Source: Porphyridium purpureum (Eukaryota). Taken from it: a stretch of DNA of 64,000 nt. The stretch covers positions 434,001 to 498,000 of the forward strand of contig VRMN01000001.1 of NCBI GenBank assembly GCA_008690995.1, written 5' to 3'. Both the position numbers and the translations under genes were made by a program. The notes under the pieces were generated by a model, which was not told where the DNA came from, did not search any database, and saw only the letters and a list, made by a program, of their open reading frames with translations. Of this stretch, positions 34,304-57,836 are shown one piece after another (position 1 is the stretch's first letter; the number at the start of each line of letters is the position of its first letter).

Positions 34304-36949
34304 CTAGCGCACGCGGATAAGCGTCAGCCCATCACGGATTGGAAGAAGTACAGAGTCCGTCCGCGAATCGTTTCTCACGTACACGTTAAAGTCATGGAGT
34401 GCGGCCGCAATTTTTTGTGCTTGATGAACTGATCGCGATCGACGCAAGTGGAGCGCATCCTTCACGCTCATCGAAGCTGCCGAGGAGGAAGTCCTGGACG
34501 ATTGCATCTCCTTCGACTCCTCACCGTATTGTTTCACCAGACCGCGAAACAATGTATTGTCCGCCGCGATCCAGCCACCGCTTTTGACGAGCTTCTTATC
34601 CAGCAGGAGGTCGTAGTAAGCCTTGTACTGCTTTTTGTTTGCATCCATATAAACAAGGTCAAACGATTTTGACTCAGACGCGAGCTGCGCTAGTGCGTCC
34701 TCACAATTTGTGACCATAAGCGTAATTTTGTCCTTGTGCGTCGACTGCTGGAAGAAGGAAGCAGCAGTGCTCGCCACCTCTTCATCGCGCTCAACGGTGA
34801 CTACCATTCCTTGTCCATTCGGCACGGCACTCGCTAGACACAACGTTCCGTAGCCAGTGAACGTACCAAGCTCGAGGACGGATGAAGCACCGATCATCCG
34901 CACAACACTATGCAAGTACTGCCCCTGCAAACTGCCGCTCATCATGTGCGTTCGCGATGCGAATGCACGCGATACGTGCGCCTGCATCGCGCTGAGCAGG
35001 TCTGTTTCTAGATCCTGCTGCTTGCTTACTTTCTGCGCGTATTCGGTGTCCCTTTCCAATTCAGCACCGGAATGTGACATGGACGCCATTCCATTATCAC
35101 CATCGCCTTCCGCCACAATGCTAGATGCGAGTGGAAACCTTGCCTTCGCTGCAGACACGCTCGTACGGCACGCCTCGGAACAGCAGCCTTGCATGCGCGC
35201 TGCGCAGTCCGGACACTGCACAAAAAGGCGCTTGTTGAATGGCCGATTGCACGATACATTTGCGCAATCCGTCTGCGTGTCACACTGCACTCCACATGTG
35301 TCACATTTCGCCAGCACATCGGCGCTCAATCGCTCGCCAATGCGCAAATCAAACACAAAATTTACGCCCTTAAACATGCTCTCGTATCCCGGATTCTCGC
35401 GAAGCATGCGTGAGTAACTCACAATGCCGCCTTTTAGGCGCTTCACGTTGGTGAAGCCCATCTTCTGTTCTAAATAAGCACCAACCTTTACGCAGCGAAT
35501 TCCTCCGGTGCAGTAGGTCAGGATAGGAGCATTCTTGTCCGTGTCCTTCAGCTGCGTTTCCAACCATTGCCAAGTGTCCCGAAACGTGTCTGTGTCCAAC
35601 GCAATCGCTCCTTCAAAGAGGCCCACTTCGCTTTCGTACCTGTTGCGGCAATCCAGAACCATGGCAGGCTCGGATCCGTTCTGCCTCGCCACGAGCGCAC
35701 GGTGCCAGTCCTGAGCCTCAATTTCGGTGCCATTGTGTTCCTTCCAGTCAATTTGCTCGATGATGGCGTCGTCCAAACCATCCTGCAGCACTTTTTCGCG
35801 CGTCTTAATGCGCAGGTCTTGGAATGCAGACTCGCTATACGATACCCGAGTGTCCTTATTCAAGAAGACACCACGAATTTCGTGGGGCATGGCGTAGTAC
35901 TCAAAGGCCTCTGCAGTGGCTTGGTCAGCTTCGCCCGCGCACTGAACCCCTTCCACGCCCATGTCGCGGACAAACTCGGCCAAATTCACCACGGGTACAC
36001 AAAACTGCGCGTTGATTCCTTCGCGCGCTACGTAGATACGTCCTTTCACACCGTAGAAAGACCAGACCATGCGAATTTGTCGCACAAGCTCCTCTGGGTC
36101 GCGAACATCCACAAAGCGATAAAATGAGATAGTTTGCACTTGGTGCTCCGGGTGCAAGGCGTCATGCTGCGCACGCGCAGCCAAGTCGAGAAAGTATTGC
36201 GGTACTGATGGCGGGGATGGCGCTTTGAGCTCCTCCAGGGGCTCCAGTACAATGCCGACGTTGCTCCCGGGCGTTCCAAGCTGCTCCGGTGGGACCGACG
36301 AGAACACTTGTTCCAGCAACTGCTCGTACGTCTCAATGGGAGGTTGTCCCTCCGAGGCGCGAATACTGAAGGAGTGGTCGTCACGCAAGACGCACCCGTA
36401 GTGCGGATCGGACGAGAGAGATGGAAATAACGTCAGTAGCTCCTCCCTGATGCGAGTGCGGAAGCTTTCCAAGGACGCACATTCTTGGTGGAGCAAAAAC
36501 ACACGCGTCCGCTTGACGCGGGTTCCAAATATACCCCACCCGCCACCTTGCTTCATGCGCGGATCCTTCAAGTAGTCGCGCGCGTCGTGCAGACCTATGC
36601 GGTATGGCATCGCGACGCGAATGCCGATCAAGCGGCCGGCTGCGCGCAATGCGTCCAGCTGCTGCTTCCTCTGCAAATTCGCCTCATGCATCACCCGCTG
36701 CCTCTGCCTCCGCAGCTGCTTCGGCGTTAATCTCAGCTCATCCGCCTCGCTTTCCCGCGAGCCGCGCGACCGCGCATGCCCTTCATTCAGCACACACCGC
36801 ACCACATTCGTGCTCACACACACCCCACGCCACCGCACCACGCGCGCGCGCGTGACCTCCCGAATCGCATCACATCGCCACCATTCACGCGCGCACGCCG
36901 CGCGCGCCCCGATTCCCTGCACGCCTCCACCTCCCACTCCCACAAACAT
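34304..36949 (-). CDS. fusion of TrhO/YceA (UPF0176 rhodanese-like tRNA U34 hydroxylase) and CCoAOMT/TrmR-family O-methyltransferase
   Basis: SFYRF, GRIYVAREGINAQ, LDCRNRYESEVGLFEGA, YCTGGIRC, LKGGI..Y, FKGVNFVFD.R and Cys-rich tail; then LELGTFTGYG, FDLVYMDANK, ADNTLFRG, LPIRDGL in the same frame. Confidence 0.9.
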   Translation of the reverse strand: MFVGVGGGGVQGIGARAACAREWWRCDAIREVTRARVVRWRGVCVSTNVVRCVLNEGHARSRGSRESEADELRLTPKQLRRQRQRVMHEANLQRKQQLDALRAAGRLIGIRVAMPYRIGLHDARDYLKDPRMKQGGGWGIFGTRVKRTRVFLLHQECASLESFRTRIREELLTLFPSLSSDPHYGCVLRDDHSFSIRASEGQPPIETYEQLLEQVFSSVPPEQLGTPGSNVGIVLEPLEELKAPSPPSVPQYFLDLAARAQHDALHPEHQVQTISFYRFVDVRDPEELVRQIRMVWSFYGVKGRIYVAREGINAQFCVPVVNLAEFVRDMGVEGVQCAGEADQATAEAFEYYAMPHEIRGVFLNKDTRVSYSESAFQDLRIKTREKVLQDGLDDAIIEQIDWKEHNGTEIEAQDWHRALVARQNGSEPAMVLDCRNRYESEVGLFEGAIALDTDTFRDTWQWLETQLKDTDKNAPILTYCTGGIRCVKVGAYLEQKMGFTNVKRLKGGIVSYSRMLRENPGYESMFKGVNFVFDLRIGERLSADVLAKCDTCGVQCDTQTDCANVSCNRPFNKRLFVQCPDCAARMQGCCSEACRTSVSAAKARFPLASSIVAEGDGDNGMASMSHSGAELERDTEYAQKVSKQQDLETDLLSAMQAHVSRAFASRTHMMSGSLQGQYLHSVVRMIGASSVLELGTFTGYGTLCLASAVPNGQGMVVTVERDEEVASTAASFFQQSTHKDKITLMVTNCEDALAQLASESKSFDLVYMDANKKQYKAYYDLLLDKKLVKSGGWIAADNTLFRGLVKQYGEESKEMQSSRTSSSAASMSVKDALHLRRSRSVHQAQKIAAALHDFNVYVRNDSRTDSVLLPIRDGLTLIRVR

Positions 36950-38082
36950 CTCCCACTCCCACCTTCCTTCCCCCTTGCCTGTTCTCTGCTCCCGACCTTC
37001 CGCCGCCGCTACCGCGCACACAAACTGTTTTTTTTTTTTTTTTCTGAACCGGTTTCAAACTGTACTCTAGTGTACACCAAATGCATATCAAGTTCCCCAT
37101 TTTCTCTTATCGTACTTCTAGGGTTCCTCCGTTAAAAATTCGTGGAGAATGATGGGTCGGTTAACGGTTAACACGTAGTCGTTAAGCCGTTAAACTGGTA
37201 ACTGATAAAGGGTGTGGCTCGAGAACAGGAAAACGCCGCGCTGCGCGTGTCGGCCGGCGACACGAGCCATCGGATAAAAAGTTTCTGTTTGGCTTAGAAG
37301 CTGCGCGCGAAACTGGGCGCAGAGCGCGACCGCGGCGGTTGTCGGTACGGAGTGCCAGTTGGAATGGTTCTACGTTTAGAACTTGATCAACTCGTTGGAT
37401 CGGGTGTTTGCAATTGGCGAAGCGAGGTTTCCCAGAATTCCACACATGACGATCACACAGCACAAACTGTACCTTTGCTGTACTCATTTCATTGTTAATT
37501 ATGTGTTTTAAATAATATGAAAGTTGTAATAAAAAAGATCTTATTTAATATTCATATTTTAATCTCGTGCGACGCGAGCGAGCTTTTGTGCGGGGCCTGC
37601 TTCGAGCGCAGTGTGGGGTGTGGCATGCTGTGCGTCCGTGTGTCGAAGCGAGTCGTGGCGGGTTGCGTGTGCCGGCGGTCTGCATGCTGCCGTGGCACGG
37701 TGATCGCGTGTCGCCAAGCTGGCTTGGAAGGTCATTGCACGCGCTTCCATTCTTTTCAAAGTGTCGAGAGAAAAAGGGAAAAGACCTCTGAATCTCGCGT
37801 TCTCGGCGCCGCCGCGCGACGAAGAACGACAGCGCTCGGTAACGTGCGCGAGTCGGTGTGTCCTATCGATCAGGGCTGCAGCGAATCCGAAATCACGCGC
37901 TGCGTGACACGTGCGCGTGCCAGATTTCGTGGGCACAAACACTGCCAAACTTCAGCGGGAAAAAGTTCGCCTCCAAGCCGCGACGAGGTGGCTGTCTTAT
38001 CGGCAAGCATTGTGCGGTTGGACCCGGGAGATACAAGCAAGACGTGAGGCAGAGAGACGAAACGAGAGAGGGTGAGTTTACA

Positions 38083-46166: not shown

Positions 46167-46455
46167 CTCCCTCCTTCCTGCTTCATCCCTCTGTCTCTCC
46201 CCCTCTCCGTTCCCTCCCTTCCCCGACCTCTGTCCCAACTTGGTGGTTGAATCGGTTTGTCCTCGTTCCTTGTGGTGTCAATAATCATCCATCAACCGGT
46301 TACCGCATTTCGACTAAACGGTCCGCTCTTCCTTACGGATAGACGTTATAGTGTACAGCGCGGCGGAGCAAGAGTCAGCGATGTGCGTATGAACGCCTCC
46401 GTGCGTGCCGGTGTGGAAGCGTGTTTGTCAATGGTACAGTGCGTCAATGACGCCT

Positions 46456-46757
46456 CGTGGAAAGTTGCCCGTCCCACTCGTCGATGGGCGTGCGGAAGGG
46501 CGAGTGCGAACGTACCGGGACGTCGTGACGGGGATTCAGCGGGTGTAATGCGATGTGACTCGACTAGCGTCCCGCCGGATGCCGATGTGACGTGACTCGA
46601 TGTGGTCAGATTGCATCAACAAGGACCCGGCGGGCGTCTATATAGTGGGTGCGGTCGCGCAGAGATGGCAGACGGATAAGCCTAGAAGAAAAGAGAGAAG
46701 GTAAGGGAAGGGGAATAGTAAAAGGGTTCTTCGTTGATCGTTAACAGAAAACCCACG
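46456..46757 (+). repeat. 5' LTR of outer element (CGTGG...CCACG)
   Basis: Identical by eye to 57032-57333; TATATA at ~46639. Confidence 0.95.
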
Positions 46758-46777
46758 TGGTATCATCGCCCGGTTCG
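46758..46777 (+). promoter_or_regulatory. primer-binding site (initiator tRNA-Met type) of outer element
   Basis: TGGTATCATCGCCCGGTTCG directly after the LTR. Confidence 0.8.
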
Positions 46778-46818
46778 GCGGGTGAGGAGCGGTAGTCTCT
46801 GGTGCGGGGCCTGTCGGG

Positions 46819-47559
46819 ATGGACGAGGAGACGGGGCCAGTTGTGAGGCCGGCGCGGCTCAGCCAGTTCGCGGGGCAGCGGAACCAGCGAGTGGTGATGA
46901 ACTGGTTGTTCGAAGTGGAGACGAAGGTTCTGCCGTTCGCCAGCTCTGAGCGCGAAGGAGTCAACGTAGCCATGAGCTACTTGACGGATACTGCATTGCA
47001 GTGGTTGCGTGGCCTGCCGGTCCGTCCATAGAATTGGGCCGGGTTTCGAACGGTGTTTATGGAACAGTTCTTGCCGGCGGACTACAAGCGTCGCGCGCGA
47101 GATGCGCTGCATGGATGGCGCCAGACGAGGGGCGTAGCGGTGTACGCGGCCGAGTTCAGGGACCTGGTCCTAGCGTGTGAGGACGTGGGTGCCGCGGAGG
47201 CGTTGGACAAGTTCACGCGTGGACTTAAGCCCGCCATAGCGTTCGAAGTTATGAAGGAGAATCCAAGTAGCCTCGATGAGGCCTGCCGAGTTGCCCTTTG
47301 CGCGGAGGACGCATTCGTGGCGGCGCGTCGCGGTTCGCCATCATCCCAGGGTCTTGGGATCCACCATCGCTCAGGCCCGACGCGCGCTTTCGACGTGCCG
47401 TATGGAGAGAGCTCGGCACCAATGGAAATCGGGGCGCAGGCTATGGAGGTAACCTGTTACAACTGCGAGGAACGCGGGCACTTTGCGCGAGACTGCCCCA
47501 AGCCGCACCGCGCGCGAGCGCAGGCGCAGCCGGGAAAAGGCGCCCCGCGCCGAGACTAG
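46819..47559 (+). pseudogene. gag: gag of outer element (gypsy-like capsid plus CCHC knuckle) with in-frame TAG at 47029-47031
   Basis: ORFs 46819-47031 and 47053-47559 share a frame; YLTDTALQW, RQTRGVAVYAAEF, FTRGLKP, PMEIG, CYNCEERGHFARDC. Confidence 0.88.
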
Positions 47560-47577
47560 GGCAGGTGTCGGCGCGGG
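47532..47577 (+). promoter_or_regulatory. -1 programmed ribosomal frameshift signal
   Basis: Slippery G GGA AAA (47532-47538), 5-nt spacer, 10-bp stem CCCGCGCCGA/TCGGCGCGGG; pol lies in the -1 frame. Confidence 0.8.
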
Positions 47578-47957
47578 AGCCGTCAGAACTTCTGACGTTG
47601 CACGTTCGCTTCTGCGGGAAACGTGCGATGGCAATCGTAGACTGTGGCGCCACACATGTCTTTGTGGATAAGGCATGGGTGCGCCATTCAGGGTTATTAT
47701 CATTTTGCGAAGCGACACCGGGACTTCAGGCCGTCCTTGCCGACGGGCGCAAGACTAATGTTGTCGGGAGCCTTCTCGGTCATTTGGAGCTGAACGGCAT
47801 CGGGTCACGTCGCTGCCGTGCGATTGTATGTCCGGCACTGATGACCGACCTCGTCATCGGTATGGAGTTCCTGACGCGTACTGGGATGGTCATTGATTAC
47901 GAGGACGGGAGCATTTTCATGCGTAAGCGGGAAGATATGAACTTGAAAAGGGACAAG

Positions 47958-48140
47958 GAGCAGAACGGGAGCGCAGGGCGCACGAGCGGAGGAACGGCTG
48001 GGCCGGGCAGAGAGCAGAACGAGAGCGCAGGGCGCACGAGCGGAGGAACGGCTGGGCCGGGCAGAGAGCAGAACGGGAGCGCAGGGCGCACGAGCGGACG
48101 AACGGCTGGGCCGGGCAGAGAGCAGAACGGGAGCGCAGGG
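47958..48140 (+). repeat. ~3.4 x 54-bp in-frame tandem repeat (EQNGSAGRTSGGTAGPGR)
   Basis: Units start at 47958, 48012, 48066 and 48120. Confidence 0.9.
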
Positions 48141-50829
48141 CACGTGGAAGCAAGCTCTGTCAATCCGCAGCCGCGAAATCAAGGACGGAGCGCGGGGCGC
48201 TCGAGCGTACATGTGGACGGGCCATGCGTGAACCGAGACACAAGCGCGGGGCGCGTGCATGAAAAGAACGCCGGAAAGTCATCAGGGCTGAGCGATGAAG
48301 AGAGCGCGGGGAGCTCCAACGCATGCTCGACAGGAGCGAACGGTTACGAGAACGGGAATATGAGCCCGGAGCGCGTAGATTGCGAAACAGATAGGCCGAA
48401 CATGGGGGCGAATGTCGAGGTCCATTCGAACCAAGCATGCAAAGGCACCCCGTTGGCGAAGTCGGCTGAGTGCCGCGAAACGGAGGTACGGACGCGAGGA
48501 AGGGACCAAGTGATGGGCAAAACGAAGGCGAGGAGCAACACGGACCCTGCGCAAGACTCGCTAGTCAGGAGTAAAATCGGGTCGCGGCATGGCGGCAGTG
48601 CGTTGAAGGAAACCGCATACCCTTCCGGAGACTGTAGCCTGATCCCAGAACCTGATTCGCCGGGGGAGGCACAAACCGGCGACATAGCGTCAAGTTCAAG
48701 CGACGATGGAGCGCCAAATGCGATACGAGGTATTCGACGCGCAATGACATGGGTCGATCGTCTCGCCCTTGGCACCACAGTTTCAAATGTGCCCGACGGA
48801 CACGCGCTCCTGCACATGCCTGCTCGCACGTCGTGCGAGGTTTGTACAAGGGCGAAGCTGAAAATGCGGCCGTCTTACCGAATTGATGTCGACGCGCACG
48901 CGCGAGCACCTGGGGTCGCTGCACGCTTTGACGAAGAAATAGGGGTGGACCTGGTCGACGCCGGCGCCAAGGTCCGTTCGCGGGAAGGATATCGATACAT
49001 CCTGACACATGTCGACGAGCACACGGGGTGGATAGAAGTCGCGGGAGTCGTCGATAAGACTGCCCTGGCCTGCCGCGAGGCGCTTGTCGAGTGCCAAGCT
49101 GGGAGAGATTGGCCGAAACGGATGCGCACAGATTCGGGCAGCGAGTTTAGGGGCGCGTTCGCGCGCGTTCTGCGCGAGAGGAACGTTGAACATACCCTCT
49201 GCATCCCTCATAGACCGAACGGACACGCGCGACTGGAAAGACTGCACCACACGTTGAATGCCGTCATTCGTTGCCTCTTATGGCAATCGGGTTTGCACGT
49301 CGTCTGGTTTTTCAGAGCAGCCAAATTCTTCGCGTTCTGGTACAATCGGGTGCACCTGGGTAGGGACGGACTAACTCCCTTTGAGCGCAGATACGGACAG
49401 GGATGGGTCGAGAGCGGCAAGCCATGGCTGATGGCTCCATTCGGATCGCGGGTGGTCTATAAAGTGGACGACGTAGCCAACAAGTTCGCTCCTACCACGC
49501 GCGAGGGAGTGGTCGTCGGGGCTCGGGACCACCCCGCCGCCCTCGAAGTTCTCGAGACAGGGTCTGGAGCGACGACGTGGACAAGAGATTTCAGAGTATT
49601 CAAAGACTTCACCATGCGCGTGCCGGGCGCAGAACCGCTCGCAGAAATGGAAAAGGTGATCGCGTACGATCCGGACGGGGATTTGGCAGTCGCACAGCGC
49701 GACAACGTCGCGTCGGAAGAGACGGGAATCAAAGCGAGGGTTGAAGCAATCACGGAACGCCTGAAGGCCATCGACGAGCGGGAAAAGCAGCTAAGCCAGG
49801 AGGTCGCGGCGCGGCGGGCGGCTAAGGAGGGCAAAGAAATCAGGCGTACAAAGAAGAACGCCCGTCGCTCGGCCCGAATAGCGGCGCGCTTTCCTTCCGT
49901 GACCATAAATGTTACCAGGGTAATGAGCAGACGAGAAGCCACCACGGATGGAAGGGCAGCTGAGGCCATTGAGAATGAGCTCGGGCAAATGCGGCGCTTC
50001 GGCGTGTGGGATCCGGAACCGGTCACTCTGAACTCCATTACCGAGGGACTTATTGTAAGGGCGCACATGGTGGTAGCCGAAAAGCACACGGAGCGTCCTG
50101 TTGAGGAGCGCAAGATCAAGGCAAGGCTCGTGGCCGGGGGGGATCGCATTACGGACATGACGGGGGTCCCAGTGTCTCTTACCGTTCCCTACGAGGCGCC
50201 GGCATCTTTAGCTGCGCTAAGGATCGTGCTGGCGTGGGCGCAGATGAACGAATTAGAAGTGGGCTTTGTTGACATCACCAGCGCCTACCTGCAGGCCGAG
50301 TGCAGCGGGGGACCGGTGTATGTAATCCTTCCCAGCGAGGCAGGCGGGAAGACGGGCACCGCCCATCATCTCCGCAAGGCAATGTACGGATTACCGAGAG
50401 CGGGAGCGGACTTCGCGCGCGAAGCTCGTAGTCGCTTGTTGCGTCTCGGATGGGTGGAGGTCACAGCAGGAGTGTATATCCGTAGAAGCCTCGAGGAGAA
50501 CGCGGCAGGACTCGTCTTGGTAATGTACGTTGACGACGTGGTCTTAGCGGGGCGGAAAGACGAGGCACGGAATGCCATGAGTGAGTTATATCAAGAATTC
50601 GTGATCGACGAGCAACCGCAGTGGCTCGGCGAGAGCCCGGTCCTTCACCTTGGCATGCGGATTTCCAGAACGAACGGAAGGGTAAAGATTGATGGTACGG
50701 ACTACGCAAAGACCATTATAGATGAGTACGAGCGCGACTCGACTGTGAGGACGAGGGGCACGCGCGATGCGGCAACCCCCATGGTATTTCCAGAGGCGGC
50801 GCTCTACGACGAAGCGGAAGTCAGTACGA

Positions 50830-51130
50830 TGTTACCAATGCTGTGCCTTTTTTTACTCTCTGCGTCTTCTTCTTACCTCTTCTGTCTCCGAGCAAGACCT
50901 GACCGGCTAGTCCGGGCAGGCGCGTCGCCTTTTTATACCCTTACTTCCGCTAGGGACAGCAAGGCGCCAAGAGAAATGACAATGCAAACCATTGGCATTT
51001 CTGCGCGCGTCTAGAAGTTTCTGGAACCTCTAGAAGCTTCTAGAAACGGTTAAACGGTCTGACGGTTTAACGGCTTACCGGTTTCGGATTAACCGAACCG
51101 TTCTAGGTGACTGGGGTCGAACGGATAACA
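50830..51130 (-). repeat. 3' LTR of gypsy element
   Basis: Identical by eye to 56001-56301. Confidence 0.95.
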
Positions 51131-51144
51131 TCTCCCCCCCTCTT
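51131..51144 (-). promoter_or_regulatory. polypurine tract of gypsy element
   Basis: Minus strand AAGAGGGGGGGAGA abutting the 3' LTR. Confidence 0.9.
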
Positions 51145-51249
51145 GGCTCGACGTCTCGGCGAGACTTCAAACTAAGTTGCATTCTTGGCTCGAGGAACCC
51201 GCGCTCCGGGAGAAAACCTCTGCCTAGCAAACTTCTCACAATTCCCAAG

Positions 51250-54200
51250 TCATTCAGAGTCAGACTCTTCGATAATTTTCAACAAGTCTGGCTCAGAATC
51301 GGACGTTGGCAGGTCGTCGGGTACTTCTTCATCATTTTCCCCTGCCATGTAGTCTTCGCGTCCATAGTATGGCTTCAGATGTTGGATCGGAAAAACATCA
51401 TGACAAGCCACACCCTCAGGCAAAATCACTCGGTAAGCATGCGAGCTTACCTTCTCAATGACAGGCACCGGACCAAGAAACTTTGGTGCCGCCAAATCAC
51501 TCTTGTTCGGCCGCAATTGCGGCGCCGTGATCAACACTTGATCACCAACTTGAAACTCCCGGGCATCCTTGCGTCGATCGAAGAACTTCTGCATTCTCCC
51601 CTGGGCTTCGATCAAATTGTCGCGGACTTCTTCATGGACTTTGCACAGGCGAAACCAGTGCTCCGCCATGTCCTTTGTCTGTCCGTCGCGCGCAGGCCTC
51701 CACCCTTCGCTCGGTGGAAACCAAGGATCCCTTCCATATACCACTTTGAACGGCGCGAATCCAGTGGCACTGCTTGGTGCAGAGTTGTACGCAAACTCGT
51801 ACAACGGCAAGTCTCGCACCCAGCCACTATTCGTCGCCATCAACTTGAGCATTTCCCGAATCACGCGGTTCACTCGCTCAGTTTGGCCATCTGTCTGCGG
51901 GTGGTTGGCGGTAGACATAGCCAACTTCATGCCCACCCGCTTGCTCAACTGCTGCCAAAACGTGGACGTAAACAGCGGATCTCGGTCCGATACAATTGAC
52001 TTGGGGTATCCGAAACGGCTCACGACGTGCTTCACGAACAAGTCAGCACAACGCTTTGCTGTCAAGTCCTTGCGCGTCGGGATGAACAGCGCAATCTTCG
52101 AATAGCGATCCACCACAGTCATAATTGCATCACAGCTGCCTTCGCTCCGAGGCAGCTCCGTCACAAAGTCCATCGAAATGTCGACCCAAGGTCCTTCTGG
52201 GATCGACAAGGGCTTCAGCTTTCCAAACGACCGATTCTCTGACTTTGTCACTTGGCATGCGTGACAAGTCTTCACAAAACGGCTCACGTCTCGCTTCATC
52301 TTTGGCCAGTAGAAGCGAGTGATCAAAGATGCATACGTCGTGTCGGCTCCACGGTGTCCTGCTGTCGGGATATCGTGGTGGAGCTGCATGACACGCTCTC
52401 TGAACTTCCTCGGCACGCAAACGCGATTCCTCAAGTACAAGAGCCCAGCTTCGGTTCGAAAACCCTGGTGGGTCGGTAAGTCACCCATCAAAGTACCAAA
52501 GTCTGGGTCACTCGAGTACGAACCCACGAATGCCTGGAAACCCGCACCAAATTCATCACACCGAACTTGGTACTCTAGCGCATGTAACTCTGGCTTCCTC
52601 GACAAAGCATCGGCTACCACGTTCGACTTTCCCTTCACATAGTCGATCGTGATGTCAAACTCGGCTAAAAAGTCCAGCCACCGTGCTTGCCGGCCATTCA
52701 GCTCCTTCTGCGTCATCAAATGTTTCAACGCCTCATGATCTGTATGAAGCACAAACTGTGCTCCGTACAGATAAGGTCGAAACTCTCGCAGACAGTGAAT
52801 GACGGCCATGAGCTCACCTTCATAGCTGCTGTACCTGGTCTCTCGGTCCAGCAGCTTCCTTGACGTAAACGCGACCGGTCTGCCTTCCTGTGCCAGCCAT
52901 CCCCCCACCGCGACTTCGGAGCGGTCTGTGTACACCTCGAATGGCTTTTCAGGGTCTGGCAAAGCCAACACCGGCGCTTCCGTCAACATCCCCACAATCT
53001 TCTTGAAGGCCGACTTGCCTTCATCTCCCAGTTCGATCAGCTGCTTCTTCGACTTTGCGTTCTGCAACAGCGAAGTCAGCGGCGCCACGACGGTAGAGTA
53101 TCCTTTGGCAAACCTGCGAAACCAGTTTGTCATTCCCAAAAAAGATCTCAACTCCGTCACCGTCTTTGGCACTGGCCAATCTTTCAAAGCTTCCACCTTC
53201 CGTGGATCCATCTTCACACAACCGTTACCGACAATGTTTCCCAGGTATTCGACTTCAGAAACGAAGAAGCTGCACTTCTTGCGCTTCAAACGATACCCTG
53301 CCTTTTGCAAGCGCGACAACACTTCCTTCAGGACCTCGCCGTGCGACTGCCTATCCTTGGTAAAGACCAAAATATCGTCCAAGTAGACAATGACGGTCTT
53401 GTCCAGCAGATCTGCAAACAGCTCGTTCATGGCCCTCTGAAAAGTTGCCGGCGCGTTGCAAAGACCAAACGGCATCACACGGAACTCGAACTGTCCGTAC
53501 CTGGTCTGGAACGCGGTCTTCGGCACGTCCTCTCTCCGAACACGCAACTGGTGGTATCCCGATGCCAAATCCAACTTTGAGAAACAGTGAGCTGCGCCCA
53601 GTCGATCCAGCAACTCATCCATGTTCGGCAACGGATACCGGTCCTTCACAGTTGCGTCGTTCAACGCCCGATAATCAACGCACATCCTCATGCTGCCGTC
53701 TTTCTTCTTCACGAACAGCACGGGTGCTCCAAACGGGCTCTGACTCGGCTGGACGAATCCTTTGTCCAGCAAGTCATCCAAAGTCTCTCGGAGGACTTTC
53801 AACTCCGCAGGGCTCAGTCGGTAGACCCTGCCCACTCTCACAGGCTTCTCATCTTTCAGCCTAATCACATGCTCCACTGTTCGGCTCTCAGGCAGCCCAC
53901 GTGGCTCCTCGAACAGATTTTCGAAATCCTTGAGCATCTTTCTCACAGAGTCAGCTTCTTTGCGCTCCACTGAACAGGGCTCCTCCCTTCCTTTCAGCAC
54001 GCCGAGGTAGCACTCTTCTACCTCCTGACTCTTCAACAGCCGACGGAGCTCTTTCCGTGGCACCAGCATCTGCGTCATGCTCCAGGCCTTTTTCTCTCCG
54101 TAGGCCAACATGCCAGACTGCCAATCAATCACTGGGTTCTCCCGCTTCAGCCACTCCATGCCCAAGATTGCGTCTTGTCCCGCAATCCGGCAAATGGCAA

Positions 54201-54648
54201 AGGTAGCGGTCCCTGAGTACCCATCGCTCAGTTCAAACTTGACATTGGAAACTTCTCCGGCTGTTTCCAATACAGACCCATCCGCTAGGGTCACATGATC
54301 TCTCTTCCACGACGCCTTCTGCTTCAGGCCGTCGGATTTCTGCACAAAGTCCACGCTCATGAAGTTGTCCGTCGCGCCACTGTCAATCAAAAACGTGGCC
54401 TCTCCGTCGGACTTGTGCACTTTTCCTCGAACTCGAAGAAGCATGGCAGCTCCCATCCCTCCAAGTTCCTTGATCACGGGCTGATTTGCGCTCGAGTTTC
54501 GCCCACAAGGTGTCGGACAGCCAGACCTTGGCTTACCAAGGCCACCACAGCGGTCTTCATTACCGCCCCTAGAGGTCTCGTAACGTGTGCGAGCCTCCTT
54601 TCCCTCTGACTGTCCGAGGAACCTCTCTACTCGAGCTCCTCGTTTTTT
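51250..54648 (-). CDS. pol: gypsy Pol (PR-RT-RH-IN), reached by -1 frameshift from gag
   Basis: LIDSGAT, LFVKKKDG, FSKLDLASGYHQ, MPFGLCNAPATFQ, YLDD, RNase H, HHCC, ISMDFV, SDRD, HPQTDGQTER and GPY/F-like tail. Confidence 0.96.
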   Translation of the reverse strand, partial: KKRGARVERFLGQSEGKEARTRYETSRGGNEDRCGGLGKPRSGCPTPCGRNSSANQPVIKELGGMGAAMLLRVRGKVHKSDGEATFLIDSGATDNFMSVDFVQKSDGLKQKASWKRDHVTLADGSVLETAGEVSNVKFELSDGYSGTATFAICRIAGQDAILGMEWLKRENPVIDWQSGMLAYGEKKAWSMTQMLVPRKELRRLLKSQEVEECYLGVLKGREEPCSVERKEADSVRKMLKDFENLFEEPRGLPESRTVEHVIRLKDEKPVRVGRVYRLSPAELKVLRETLDDLLDKGFVQPSQSPFGAPVLFVKKKDGSMRMCVDYRALNDATVKDRYPLPNMDELLDRLGAAHCFSKLDLASGYHQLRVRREDVPKTAFQTRYGQFEFRVMPFGLCNAPATFQRAMNELFADLLDKTVIVYLDDILVFTKDRQSHGEVLKEVLSRLQKAGYRLKRKKCSFFVSEVEYLGNIVGNGCVKMDPRKVEALKDWPVPKTVTELRSFLGMTNWFRRFAKGYSTVVAPLTSLLQNAKSKKQLIELGDEGKSAFKKIVGMLTEAPVLALPDPEKPFEVYTDRSEVAVGGWLAQEGRPVAFTSRKLLDRETRYSSYEGELMAVIHCLREFRPYLYGAQFVLHTDHEALKHLMTQKELNGRQARWLDFLAEFDITIDYVKGKSNVVADALSRKPELHALEYQVRCDEFGAGFQAFVGSYSSDPDFGTLMGDLPTHQGFRTEAGLLYLRNRVCVPRKFRERVMQLHHDIPTAGHRGADTTYASLITRFYWPKMKRDVSRFVKTCHACQVTKSENRSFGKLKPLSIPEGPWVDISMDFVTELPRSEGSCDAIMTVVDRYSKIALFIPTRKDLTAKRCADLFVKHVVSRFGYPKSIVSDRDPLFTSTFWQQLSKRVGMKLAMSTANHPQTDGQTERVNRVIREMLKLMATNSGWVRDLPLYEFAYNSAPSSATGFAPFKVVYGRDPWFPPSEGWRPARDGQTKDMAEHWFRLCKVHEEVRDNLIEAQGRMQKFFDRRKDAREFQVGDQVLITAPQLRPNKSDLAAPKFLGPVPVIEKVSSHAYRVILPEGVACHDVFPIQHLKPYYGREDYMAGENDEEVPDDLPTSDSEPDLLKIIEESDSE

Positions 54649-55433
54649 GACTCCAGCGAGTCTCCCTCCAGCTGCTGGATAGTCTTCCTTGCCTCGGGAC
54701 ACTTCCTCGCGATGTGTCCCGGCCTTCCACAATTCCAGCATTTGAGCTCGCTTCGAACACGCCTCTGACCCTGCACATGTCCCAGCTCCATCGGGACGGG
54801 TCCTTCCTGCGCTGCACGACCGAAAAATGGCGTCCTCACACTTGAATCACGCACGCCGCGGGTCGCATGAATGGCGTCGTCCACGACCACCGCCACCTGC
54901 GCAGCCTCCGCAAACGTGCTCACTCCTCGCTTGTACACTTCTAAGCGGACCTCGGGCTTCAGACCCCTCACAAAGCGGTCCATCATTTCTGCGTCCGACA
55001 AGTCCGGAATCACAAGTGCCGCGTCCTGAAAAGCCGCCACATACGCATGGGCCGGGCCTTTCTGCGAAAGACGCGTCAACTTGTCCCTTGCACGCCTGAT
55101 CGAATCCTGCGGCGTGAACCGAGCACTCACGAGGGCAGCGAAATCATTCCACGTCGTGGGGATCTCCTGCGGGTAGCGCTCGCAGTTCAGGACCCACCAA
55201 TGAAGCGCCTCTCCCTCGAAGTAGTCTGATGCCAAGTCCACAGCACGCCTCTCCGCAAGCAGACGTTTCTCCAAATCGTCCGGGTGGATGCTCTCCAACA
55301 GCCGGCCCAAGATCTTCTTTCTCGCCTGGAACAACCACGTCTTCACAACCAGAAGGTCACGCTTCCCGTCGAACCTCATCTGACGGGCCTCCTTCGGGCC
55401 ACGTGGTCCCAGCGTCTCCGAATCAATCTCCAT
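54627..55433 (-). CDS. gag: gypsy Gag
   Basis: FDGKRD, FEGEALHWW, LSQKG..YVAAF, FVRGLKP, PMELG, CWNCGRPGHIARKC; slippery A AAA AAC at 54648-54642. Confidence 0.94.
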   Translation of the reverse strand: MEIDSETLGPRGPKEARQMRFDGKRDLLVVKTWLFQARKKILGRLLESIHPDDLEKRLLAERRAVDLASDYFEGEALHWWVLNCERYPQEIPTTWNDFAALVSARFTPQDSIRRARDKLTRLSQKGPAHAYVAAFQDAALVIPDLSDAEMMDRFVRGLKPEVRLEVYKRGVSTFAEAAQVAVVVDDAIHATRGVRDSSVRTPFFGRAAQEGPVPMELGHVQGQRRVRSELKCWNCGRPGHIARKCPEARKTIQQLEGDSLESKNEELE

Positions 55434-55981
55434 GCTTTCTGGACTAAAGCACGCTCAACGACGACAACGACACAAACAGCAAGCCTCCGATGCTCACTTT
55501 CTCCAACAGCTGCGCGCACCACGAACGGGCTCGGTCGCCCTCACGAACACAAACCGACACACGAAGCTGTCCTCTCACGCACACACACGCACAGCAATCT
55601 TCTCACGCACACACAACAAAGCACACAGCAATCCTCCTCTGTTGCGCTGGATGGGGAGCGGCCCGGGCCTTTGCACTGGGGCGGGGATTATAGATGCGAT
55701 CTTGTATGGAGGTGTTCGGCGCCTACCTTCGCAAAGGTGGTCGTGCGACACTAGGATGAATCCTAGTGAAGGCTGACCGTTACGGCTCTTGCCTACTAAT
55801 ACGTGCTAAGGCAGAGAGCGAGTCCGCCGTCAAGGCCTAGGCCTATCGTACAGCCAAGACTGAGACCCGCTTCCACCCGTCGCACCCTCCGGATCGACTT
55901 ACTCGAACCCCCTTACCCGCAGACTCTCCCACCCAGGCAACCCCAGAGAAACTCTAAGAGAACCTTAGAGCAACCCCAGGT

Positions 55982-55998
55982 AACCAGCAATGATACCA
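55982..55998 (-). promoter_or_regulatory. primer-binding site (initiator tRNA-Met type) of gypsy element
   Basis: Minus strand TGGTATCATTGCTGGTT, 2 nt after the 5' LTR. Confidence 0.8.
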
Positions 55999-56000
55999 AA

Positions 56001-56301
56001 TGTTACCAATGCTGTGCCTTTTTTTACTCTCTGCGTCTTCTTCTTACCTCTTCTGTCTCCGAGCAAGACCTGACCGGCTAGTCCGGGCAGGCGCGTCGCC
56101 TTTTTATACCCTTACTTCCGCTAGGGACAGCAAGGCGCCAAGAGAAATGACAATGCAAACCATTGGCATTTCTGCGCGCGTCTAGAAGTTTCTGGAACCT
56201 CTAGAAGCTTCTAGAAACGGTTAAACGGTCTGACGGTTTAACGGCTTACCGGTTTCGGATTAACCGAACCGTTCTAGGTGACTGGGGTCGAACGGATAAC
56301 A
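56001..56301 (-). repeat. 5' LTR of gypsy element
   Basis: TGTTA...TAACA; minus-strand TATAAAAA at 56108-56101 and CCAAT at ~56166. Confidence 0.95.
56185..56216. promoter_or_regulatory. two heat-shock elements in gypsy U3 (copy at 51014-51045)
   Basis: GAAgtTTCtgGAA and GAAgcTTCtaGAA match nGAAnnTTCnnGAAn. Confidence 0.7.
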
Positions 56302-56306
56302 TACGA

Positions 56307-57124
56307 CTTGCCGGCAACACGTCGGACGCCTAATGTGGCTCGCACGCACGGTAAAGCCCGAAATAGCATACTCGGTCGCATATGTCTCGCGCTTTGTGGA
56401 CAAGTGGAGCAAGGCAGCATCGGCGATTCTCGACCGAATCGTGCGGTACGTGCACGGGAGCCAGGATAGTGTCTTGGAATACGGCAGCGCGGGGCGCCTG
56501 GGAGATCAGGTACGAATAGTCGCCTTTTCAGATAGCGACCATGCAGGCTGTCCCGCGACGCGGCGGTCAACTTCCGGCGGTTGCGTATACTTCTCAAACG
56601 GAGAAGAGAACTACTTGGTAGATTGGTTTTCGAAAGCACAACGGGCCTCGGTATTATCCACCGCGGAGGCGGAACTCACCGCCCTTGGCAGGATCATGCG
56701 AACTACGATTCCTAACGCCGAAGTTGTAATCCGAGGGCTCGTTGGAACGCGCGTACCGCTCGCTGTGTGTTGCGACAGCGAAGCAGCGGTGAAGGCCGTT
56801 CGACGAGGATACTCCGCCAAGATGGCAAGTCTCGGGAAGACACACGGCGTCACTGTAGCCACCCTCTCGGACGCTTTTGATGGAGAAGACTCGAACCTCG
56901 TGTCTGTCCCCGGAATATCGAATTGCGCAGACATCTTCACGAAGCCGATGGAACGAGTGGCATTTACACGTGCTATTGCCAACCTTAGGAAGGGCGCTTC
57001 CAACGATCGAGAGCGAGACGTGCACGGGGCGCGTGGAAAGTTGCCCGTCCCACTCGTCGATGGGCGTGCGGAAGGGCGAGTGCGAACGTACCGGGACGTC
57101 GTGACGGGGATTCAGCGGGTGTAA
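56307..57124 (+). pseudogene. pol: pol of outer element, 3' part: end of RT and copia-type RNase H
   Basis: Removing the gypsy element plus one TSD restores the frame (EVST-TCRQHVGRLMWLART); SDSDHAG, RRSTSG, STAEAE, CDSEAA, ADIFTKP. Confidence 0.94.
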
Positions 57125-57333
57125 TGCGATGTGACTCGACTAGCGTCCCGCCGGATGCCGATGTGACGTGACTCGATGTGGTCAGATTGCATCAACAAGG
57201 ACCCGGCGGGCGTCTATATAGTGGGTGCGGTCGCGCAGAGATGGCAGACGGATAAGCCTAGAAGAAAAGAGAGAAGGTAAGGGAAGGGGAATAGTAAAAG
57301 GGTTCTTCGTTGATCGTTAACAGAAAACCCACG
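57032..57333 (+). repeat. 3' LTR of outer element
   Basis: Identical by eye to 46456-46757; followed by TSD CGCCT. Confidence 0.95.
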
Positions 57334-57836
57334 CGCCTCAGGACAAACAAGAACGAAAGAGACAGCACAAGACGTGCGCGTGTGTGCGAAGCGAGGGAAA
57401 GGAAAAAGGAGCGAAGAGAGGGGGATAAGGGCAAGGGGAAGGATAGAGGGGAGAGAAGAGGACGGGAGAGACAAGGTGGAGGAGGAAACCGGTGGGAGGG
57501 GTGTGGATTCAAAGGTGTTTCGGGGACGCGGACGTGTGTGCGTGTGTGCATGCATGCATGCGTGTATGTGCGCATGAGTGCTTACATAGGTAGAGCATTG
57601 GCGCGGGTGTGGGGCGGAGTGCATGCGAAAGATCTGACTGTGCGCGACGTGTGGGTTTGAGTGCATGCGTGCTCGGGCAGCTGGAGCAGTGGCGAGCGTG
57701 GCGGGTGCATGGAAAGTTCGCGGAGTAGCACGAGCGGTAGCGGAAGAGACAGGAGTGTTGGCTGACGGAGTAGGTACCGTGTGTATATGTTTGGGCGATT
57801 GTGAGTGGGACGCGGAGGAAGAAAGGTACGCGCGGG

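Follow-up and report, generated by a model that had tools for sequence, protein, structure and literature searches.

Retrotransposons of the copia and gypsy types, which carry long terminal repeats (LTRs), are classed as separate superfamilies, each with its own Gag, protease and enzymes. An element of the PyRE10G type from Porphyra yezoensis, reportedly described by Peddigari et al., is said to be a red-algal copia element with a gypsy-like integrase. It is, by its title, the nearest precedent for the element treated here. PyRE10G is called GalEa-like in the part available of PMC3587641, and the Gmr1-like elements are presented, in the available portions of PMC2774666 and PMC3587641, as rearranged gypsy elements with a gypsy-type front end in which integrase (IN) lies before reverse transcriptase (RT). 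Recombination among copia lineages has been inferred in a large plant survey, in which, according to the sections available, chimeric-looking elements were removed as likely errors (PMC6317226). The subject of this report is an LTR retrotransposon at positions 46456-57333 of a 64,000-nt stretch of Porphyridium purpureum DNA (the window). It very probably descends from an old recombination, in which the Gag-protease (PR) block of a divergent copia element was replaced by that of a red-algal gypsy element, and belongs to a multi-copy hybrid family. An element with gypsy Gag-PR joined to copia IN-RT-RNase H (RH) was not found described in the literature searched, with subscription papers, Repbase and supplements outside its scope.

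Organization of the element

The outer element, its target-site duplications (TSDs) and a second element nested in it comprise the following features.

46451-46455, no strand: left TSD, CGCCT (sequence; empty site in run X10)
46456-46757, plus: 5' LTR, 302 bp, beginning with CGTG and ending with CACG (sequence; the flanks of further insertions start from these ends too)
46758-46769, plus: primer-binding site (PBS), starting with TGGTATCA (sequence)
46819-47559, plus: gag, 246 codons, with a Ty3/gypsy-type capsid and one CCHC knuckle at 47452-47502 (Pfam, profiles, alignment)
47532-47577, plus: predicted -1 frameshift signal, consisting of the heptamer G GGA AAA (47532-47538), a 5-nt spacer and a hairpin at 47544-47577 (sequence, folding scan)
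47601-47879, plus: aspartic protease, assigned to the gypsy/retroviral side, with an ILG-type C-terminal motif (Pfam, profiles, motif)
47880-48800, plus: spacer of about 300 amino acids, private to the family, with 54-bp tandem repeats at 47951-48141; the PR/IN junction is within this interval
48801-49601, plus: integrase with a compact HX3HX6CX2C zinc finger, DDE core and C-terminal module of the divergent copia lineage (Pfam, profile, tree)
49962-50829, plus: first part of a copia-type RT, RVT_2 at 50082-50732, cut by the nested insertion (Pfam)
50830-56301, minus: nested Ty3/gypsy element, with identical LTRs at 50830-51130 and 56001-56301, TSD TACGA, gag at 54627-55433 and pol at 51250-54846
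56307-57124, plus: last part of RT, with copia-type RNase H; its reading frame continues into the 3' LTR (translation)
57032-57333, plus: 3' LTR, same as the 5' LTR (sequence)
57334-57338, no strand: right TSD, CGCCT (sequence)

The domain order is Gag (capsid, CCHC), PR, IN, RT and RH, with pol in the -1 frame relative to gag. In Pfam, Gag matches Retrotrans_gag (E 4e-10), Ty3_capsid (1e-3, under its cut-off) and zf-CCHC; the matches of Pol are, in order, Asp_protease_2 (2e-8) or gag-asp_proteas (4e-8), rve (5e-9) and RVT_2 (5e-15). Pol_BBD, Retrotran_gag_2 and RVT_1 gave no match at E<=0.1 in the outer-element proteins. Since rve precedes RVT_2 in one frame, IN lies upstream of RT, and the copia RT and RNase H motifs named in the original prediction were all found in the translations. 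A chimera of gypsy Gag-PR and copia IN-RT-RH, as it had been proposed there, is borne out by the domain profiles and by the discordant trees described below.

The heptamer G GGA AAA keeps the phase of gag. Of the 4032 windows of 37 nt scanned in the 5' part, the most stable are those occupied by the hairpin that lies 5 nt downstream, with a z of -5.8 relative to 300 shuffles. Gag contains an in-frame TAG at 47029-47031 (codon 71). All 7 runs compared read G instead of T at 47029, hence this stop is private to the window copy, which is disabled. Neither the stop nor the CG...CG termini described below had been mentioned in the original prediction.

Affinities of the two halves

Comparisons of sequence place Gag and PR of the window element on the gypsy side. 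The hybrid Gag aligns with that of the nested gypsy element, as had been seen by eye, at 32% identity over 265 columns (E 3e-36), and the hybrid protease, likewise predicted to parallel its gypsy counterpart, at 29% identity over 98 columns. At the DNA level, no similarity was found between the two elements (best blastn E 0.2), including their LTRs. Profiles were used for the affinity of Gag, because Retrotrans_gag also marks copia polyproteins. With a capsid-only profile of the Gags of four hybrid families, the nested gypsy Gag scores 153.7 bits and four proteins found with the same Gag alignment 16-38 bits, while 27 canonical copia N-termini (3 of the 5 Retrotrans_gag-marked copia polyproteins included) score at most 5.7 and 8 divergent-copia N-termini at most 0 bits. 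A copia Gag profile gives the hybrid Gag 22.6 bits, which is near its gypsy Gag scores (22-36), and copia members 97-262 bits. Gypsy-type pol domains occur in three of the four non-family matches among the longer proteins found by Gag alignment, and RVT_2 in none. The hybrid Gags are 26-37% identical to the co-resident gypsy Gag and 22-35% identical among themselves; any copia Gag is far more distant from them.

For PR, a profile of five hybrid proteases gives 63.9 bits with the nested gypsy PR, at most 18.9 with 29 canonical copia PRs (out of a set of 40, the ones in which a motif could be recognised) and at most 7.9 with 15 divergent-copia PRs; the canonical copia PR profile scores 4.5 bits on the hybrid PR. 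In hhalign, the canonical copia PR set matches the divergent one at 98%, over 96 columns. An ILG-type motif is present in all five hybrid PRs. Among the recognisable outgroup PRs of the divergent clade, LS is found in 15 of 18 and ILG in none. According to section 12 of PMC2774666, the part available, LLS is the copia protease state and ILG occurs in most others. Look-alikes in the atlas carry Ty3_capsid/Retrotrans_gag for the hybrid Gag and RVP_2/RVP for PR. A Gag homologue search at near lengths yielded none among 861 candidates, and in the PDB, a sequence search with Gag brought up zinc knuckles for the most part, one with PR no match.

By contrast with this front half, IN, RT and RNase H are copia-side and belong to a divergent lineage. 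When 1.84 billion representatives were searched with IN-RT-RH, other P. purpureum families came out as top matches (30-41% identity); the 20 top matches looked up comprise 12 from P. purpureum and 8 Logan/JGI/ENA/MMETSP records. RT-RH trees were calculated from 186 rows (FastTree) and from 38 rows (IQ-TREE, LG+G4), the latter without near-identical copies, fragments and one repetitive record; the RT trees comprise copia-type RTs only. The window element falls into a 17-row clade (support 97/95) nested in a larger divergent copia clade, which is split from canonical copia at 100/100, and the 17 rows are nested among copia elements with LS-motif proteases. In the IN tree (34 of the 48 extracted rows), the hybrid INs group with the divergent copia relatives at 99/96; a hybrid IN profile gives 14 bits on the nested gypsy IN. 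A metagenome scan added 20 distant loci (23-36% identity), none of which fits the hybrid protease profile, while 5 fit the canonical copia one.

The large divergent copia clade of P0067, P0068, P0085, P0097, P0105, P0121 and kin (numbers of our protein rows) comes from environmental sources; it has compact IN zinc fingers, Gags without Pfam match and, in some, CCCH fingers. It possibly corresponds to the "copia environmental clades" of PMC5029228. The polyprotein of P0068 carries a C-terminal AAA_28 domain after RNase H.

Related families and a second exchange

A protease is kept in 7 of the 17 clade rows, being gypsy-type in 5 and canonical copia in 2. The gypsy-type front end occurs with a Ty3-type Gag in the window family, P0210, P0066 (with P0214) and P0069, and as PR-IN-RT in P0220, the record of which is without Gag; P0061, P0065, P0083, P0089 and P0095 are further rows of the clade.

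The other two proteases belong to P0221 and P0223 of P. purpureum, in which canonical Retrotran_gag_2, Pol_BBD and a canonical IN are joined to the same divergent RT-RH. The IN of these two falls with canonical copia (100/93). By the approximately unbiased test, a common group with the hybrids is rejected for their IN (p-AU 5e-6), and one with canonical copia for their RT (p-AU 0.019). This points to a second swap, in which one branch later would have taken a canonical copia Gag-PR-IN. P0224, a row clustering with P0078 of P. purpureum, has a third front end with the remnant of an LS-motif protease. Monophyly of the rows with non-canonical front ends gave a p-AU of 0.082 in RT.

The pairing of P0066 and P0069 recurs in the Gag, PR, IN and RT trees, which implies joint inheritance since capture. 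From the PR motif to the IN zinc finger there are 386 amino acids in the window family and 107-131 in the four sister families; the long repeat spacer is therefore a later expansion private to the window family. The junction had been predicted to lie in the repeat-rich PR-IN spacer. A position between PR and the IN zinc finger holds, but the repeats, being private, mark no junction.

In P0069, Gag, CCHC and PR are annotated in one frame in all four records, which are gene models. The -1 slippery site with stem, predicted and recovered in the window element, may therefore not be universal among the hybrid families, with the expression strategy varying between them. In the gene models of P0046 and P0210, an intron between Gag and PR removes the CCHC knuckle, and is read as a probable workaround of the predictor for the frameshift. 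Between IN and RT, the family of the window element has a charged, coiled-coil-like stretch. A Myb-like segment was observed at this place in P0063 (Pfam Myb_DNA-binding) and, by eye, in P0066, P0069, P0083, P0089 and P0095.

Origin of the hybrid

Several points weigh against a captured gypsy front end. The nested element is the sole close gypsy reference, and the four non-copia Gag references are not independent, having come from the hybrid Gag alignment. Retrotrans_gag also marks 5 of the 45 pol-search proteins, all 5 of them copia polyproteins, and is not diagnostic alone. Three plant gypsy proteins score 6-18 bits with the hybrid PR profile, which is no better than the best copia PR; two of the three have no visible catalytic motif. 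Grouping of the hybrid INs with gypsy IN is not rejected (p-AU 0.099, long branch), and the poorly resolved Gag tree does not discriminate between a single capture and several (p-AU 0.335). The architectures of the sister families are taken from gene models, and in the window family no short-read contig of the 7 runs compared spans the 54-bp repeats, with breaks at 47987 and 48112. Modelling of the hybrid capsid (pLDDT 74.6, four sequences) confirmed the capsid fold. With this model, dArc, PEG10 and Ty3 come out ahead of Copia in Foldseek, but VIA-align is mixed (PEG10, Z 13.0 with 83 aligned residues and rmsd 1.9; Copia capsid, Z 11.3 with 151 aligned and rmsd 5.3). The predicted fold would fit both superfamilies and does not decide between them.

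A capsid fold common to copia and gypsy would also suit a deep copia lineage with an ancestral or convergent gypsy-like Gag and protease, without any recombination, and so would the fast evolution of Gag and PR, with identities of only 22-38%. This is unlikely, as PR and Gag are copia-type in the outer members of the clade that encloses the hybrids, and the hybrid Gags are as near to the co-resident gypsy Gag as to each other. Recombination between superfamilies, which the original prediction had put at the root of the lineage, is supported by profiles, discordant trees and the multi-copy evidence. Because the hybrids nest in a copia lineage with LS-motif proteases, it is most likely the Gag-PR block that was replaced, long ago.

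A single, recent recombination with the co-resident gypsy element, with the joint at the 54-bp repeats, would be suggested by the gypsy element physically nested in the outer one and by the repeats between the two halves. It is highly improbable and largely refuted by the lack of DNA similarity, the protein identity of only 32% and 29%, and the four sister families having the same build without the long spacer. As four more families at 30-41% identity share the build, this is no fresh hybrid; the hybridisation appears to be old, to have founded at least five families and not to be an exchange with the nested gypsy itself.

The replacement of the copia Gag-PR would have occurred by template switch or by recombination of nested elements just before the IN zinc finger. 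Gag and PR would have moved together, since the frameshift signal lies between the two and the protease has to be able to cut the Gag that belongs to it. The hybrid then would have radiated before one branch took the canonical copia Gag-PR-IN. In the functional element, the LTR transcript would be translated into Gag and, by -1 frameshifting at G GGA AAA, into Gag-Pol. The gypsy-type capsid would package the element RNA, and the gypsy-type protease would cut Gag and free the copia IN and RT/RH. After priming by the initiator tRNA at the PBS, the cDNA would be inserted by the copia-type integrase with a 5-bp duplication. A hybrid that radiated means that capsid and protease form an exchangeable module able to package and process a foreign IN-RT-RH. 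It also offers, in a culturable alga, a natural and apparently recently active system for particle/enzyme compatibility, protease specificity and integrase end-processing.

Copies and mobility

Hybrid pol is 100% identical to P. purpureum protein records, and its 90% cluster has 13 members. About ten near-identical annotated loci, counted from protein records by accession neighbourhood, lie on at least five scaffolds, and four of them share one identical 1574-aa model. At least half of the sampled element words are contained in 16 of the 24 listed sequencing runs (X1, X6 and so on); all compared runs are contigs, and some may share their source with the assembly. Run X10 bridges the empty site with a skip of 10883 bases, which is the element plus one 5-bp TSD, and run X12 has the same empty-site flank. 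The LTR pair is alike in 302 of 302 bases and CGCCT flanks the element on both sides, so that the identical LTRs and clean TSD reported before were recovered. With some ten loci, the empty site and insertion polymorphism, the chimera itself has transposed, as had been suggested; the outer element apparently was mobile recently.

An assembly or annotation artefact fusing two elements might be suspected from the breaks of the short-read contigs at the repeats, and all named copies may derive from one assembly. It is extremely improbable. One LTR pair with its TSD encloses the whole element, the order gag-PR-IN is the same in protein records from several scaffolds, one X1 contig reads RT-RH-LTR-gag, and the design is repeated in four other families. 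An assembly join, named beforehand as a possible refutation, is likewise made unlikely by the near-identical loci, the empty site and the un-nested form in other runs. Contig depth, which is not equal to copy number, differs between the gag-PR and IN-RT halves in X6, X10 and X14, with no such difference in X1 and X12. Four runs presumed to be RNA (X14, X16-X18) and two metatranscriptome rows of small share are not counted here as evidence of expression.

Five of the roughly ten family copies (P0001, P0048, P0051, P0055, P0057) are seemingly interrupted in RT/RH by other elements; two enter the LTR of the nested gypsy, and three another common tail, two of these at the same position.

LTR termini and primer-binding site

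The outer LTRs have CG...CG termini (46456-46459, 57330-57333), with TG and CA two bases inside. The CGTG...CACG ends are fixed by the empty site in run X10. In runs X6, X10 and X17, other insertions begin or stop at these terminal bases; from two loose ends of run X10, a second TSD, TATGG, can plausibly be read in the same register. Reading the outer LTR with TG...CA ends would do away with the TSD and was therefore rejected. The nested gypsy element has two bases between CA and its PBS that the integrated end lacks; the outer element, which also has two bases at this place, keeps them in its integrated end. The outer element would accordingly integrate without 3' trimming of its cDNA ends. 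Ty1 integrase joins blunt ends. In the available parts of two plant surveys of non-TGCA LTR ends, the first base is always T (10.1101/137141, PMC9804982). Elements such as the present one are missed by TG...CA filters and by labels based on RT only.

The PBS TGGTATCA, which we take to be of the initiator-methionine type, has 11 of 12 letters in common with that of the nested gypsy, and both begin 2 nt past the CA of the LTR. The same PBS position and letters would suit the opposite direction of exchange, in which it was a gypsy element that acquired a copia IN-RT-RH and retained LTR, PBS, Gag and PR of its own; the crossover would be the same and the cis elements gypsy-derived. Protein data cannot separate this from the replacement of a copia Gag-PR block. 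It is quite unlikely, since a common PBS follows from the same host tRNA and the hybrid LTRs have no DNA similarity to gypsy.

Tentatively, Porphyridium may be regarded as a swap meet of LTR modules, in which one divergent copia RT-RH core is combined with three front ends, namely its own, a gypsy Gag-PR, perhaps captured repeatedly, and the Gag-PR-IN of canonical copia. A mismatch would then show in the CG...CG ends, with the gypsy-style two bases beyond CA kept in the cDNA and joined untrimmed by the copia-derived integrase. If so, the boundaries of the superfamilies would be porous in structural and cis modules.

A diverged sister LTR was noticed in other runs (loose ends at window 46584-46758, runs X10 and X12), one copy of which has 8 differences and 2 gaps over 112 bases and the same end base.

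Nested element and surroundings

The nested gypsy has TG..CA ends, matches RVT_1, RT_RNaseH, Integrase_H2C2 and SH3_Tf2-1 in Pfam, and sits inside the RT of the outer element. The un-nested RT join 50824->56302 was found in runs X1, X6 and X10; the nested gypsy is a later insertion and no part of the hybrid. Its family is multi-copy, variable and intact in appearance, and has a slippery heptamer of its own, A AAA AAC, together with a stem. Among the viral contigs searched, no relatives of its pol or of the hybrid RT-RH were found.

The outer element is inserted into a short interval (window 46277-57774) between divergently oriented TAF1-like and RIC1-like genes. Elsewhere in the window, one open frame (34307-37054, minus strand) joins UPF0176_N/rhodanese and O-methyltransferase domains.

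Comparison with known systems

Summarizing, the hybrid is a full member of neither copia, gypsy, Gmr1 nor GalEa. With Ty1/copia it shares the order PR-IN-RT-RH, the RVT_2-type RT, the ADxxTK end of RNase H and the 5-bp TSD. It differs in a Gag and PR outside the copia families (no LLS/Pol_BBD, no Retrotran_gag_2/UBN2), a predicted -1 frameshift, the compact HX3HX6CX2C zinc finger and CG...CG instead of TG...CA ends. The capsid, CCHC knuckle, ILG-type protease and overlapping frames with slippery site and stem are as in Ty3/gypsy elements, the nested one included, whereas the IN of the hybrid precedes RT, its RT, RH and IN are copia-side, and RVT_1 is absent. Gmr1 has a gypsy RT, in contrast to the copia RT-RH of the hybrid (RVT_2, no RVT_1).

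GalEa elements (CoPorcru1/2 of Porphyridium cruentum) are copia elements of the same genus and have the KARLVA and YVDD motifs in common with the hybrid. They are set apart by their described features, i.e., TGT..CA ends, a TGGTAGCAGAGC PBS, HX4HX30CX2C and a DTG(C/A) protease, none of which is present in the hybrid. The non-TGCA plant copia elements (Tos17, TARE1, AtRE1, lotus types) resemble it, in the parts available of 10.1101/137141 and PMC9804982, in their non-canonical ends, LTRs of about 300 bp and insertion near genes; in those same parts their first base is T throughout, while the hybrid begins with C and has its TG and CA two bases further in. In PyRE10G, finally, the gypsy-like part is the integrase, whereas in the hybrid IN is copia-side and it is Gag-PR which is gypsy-side.

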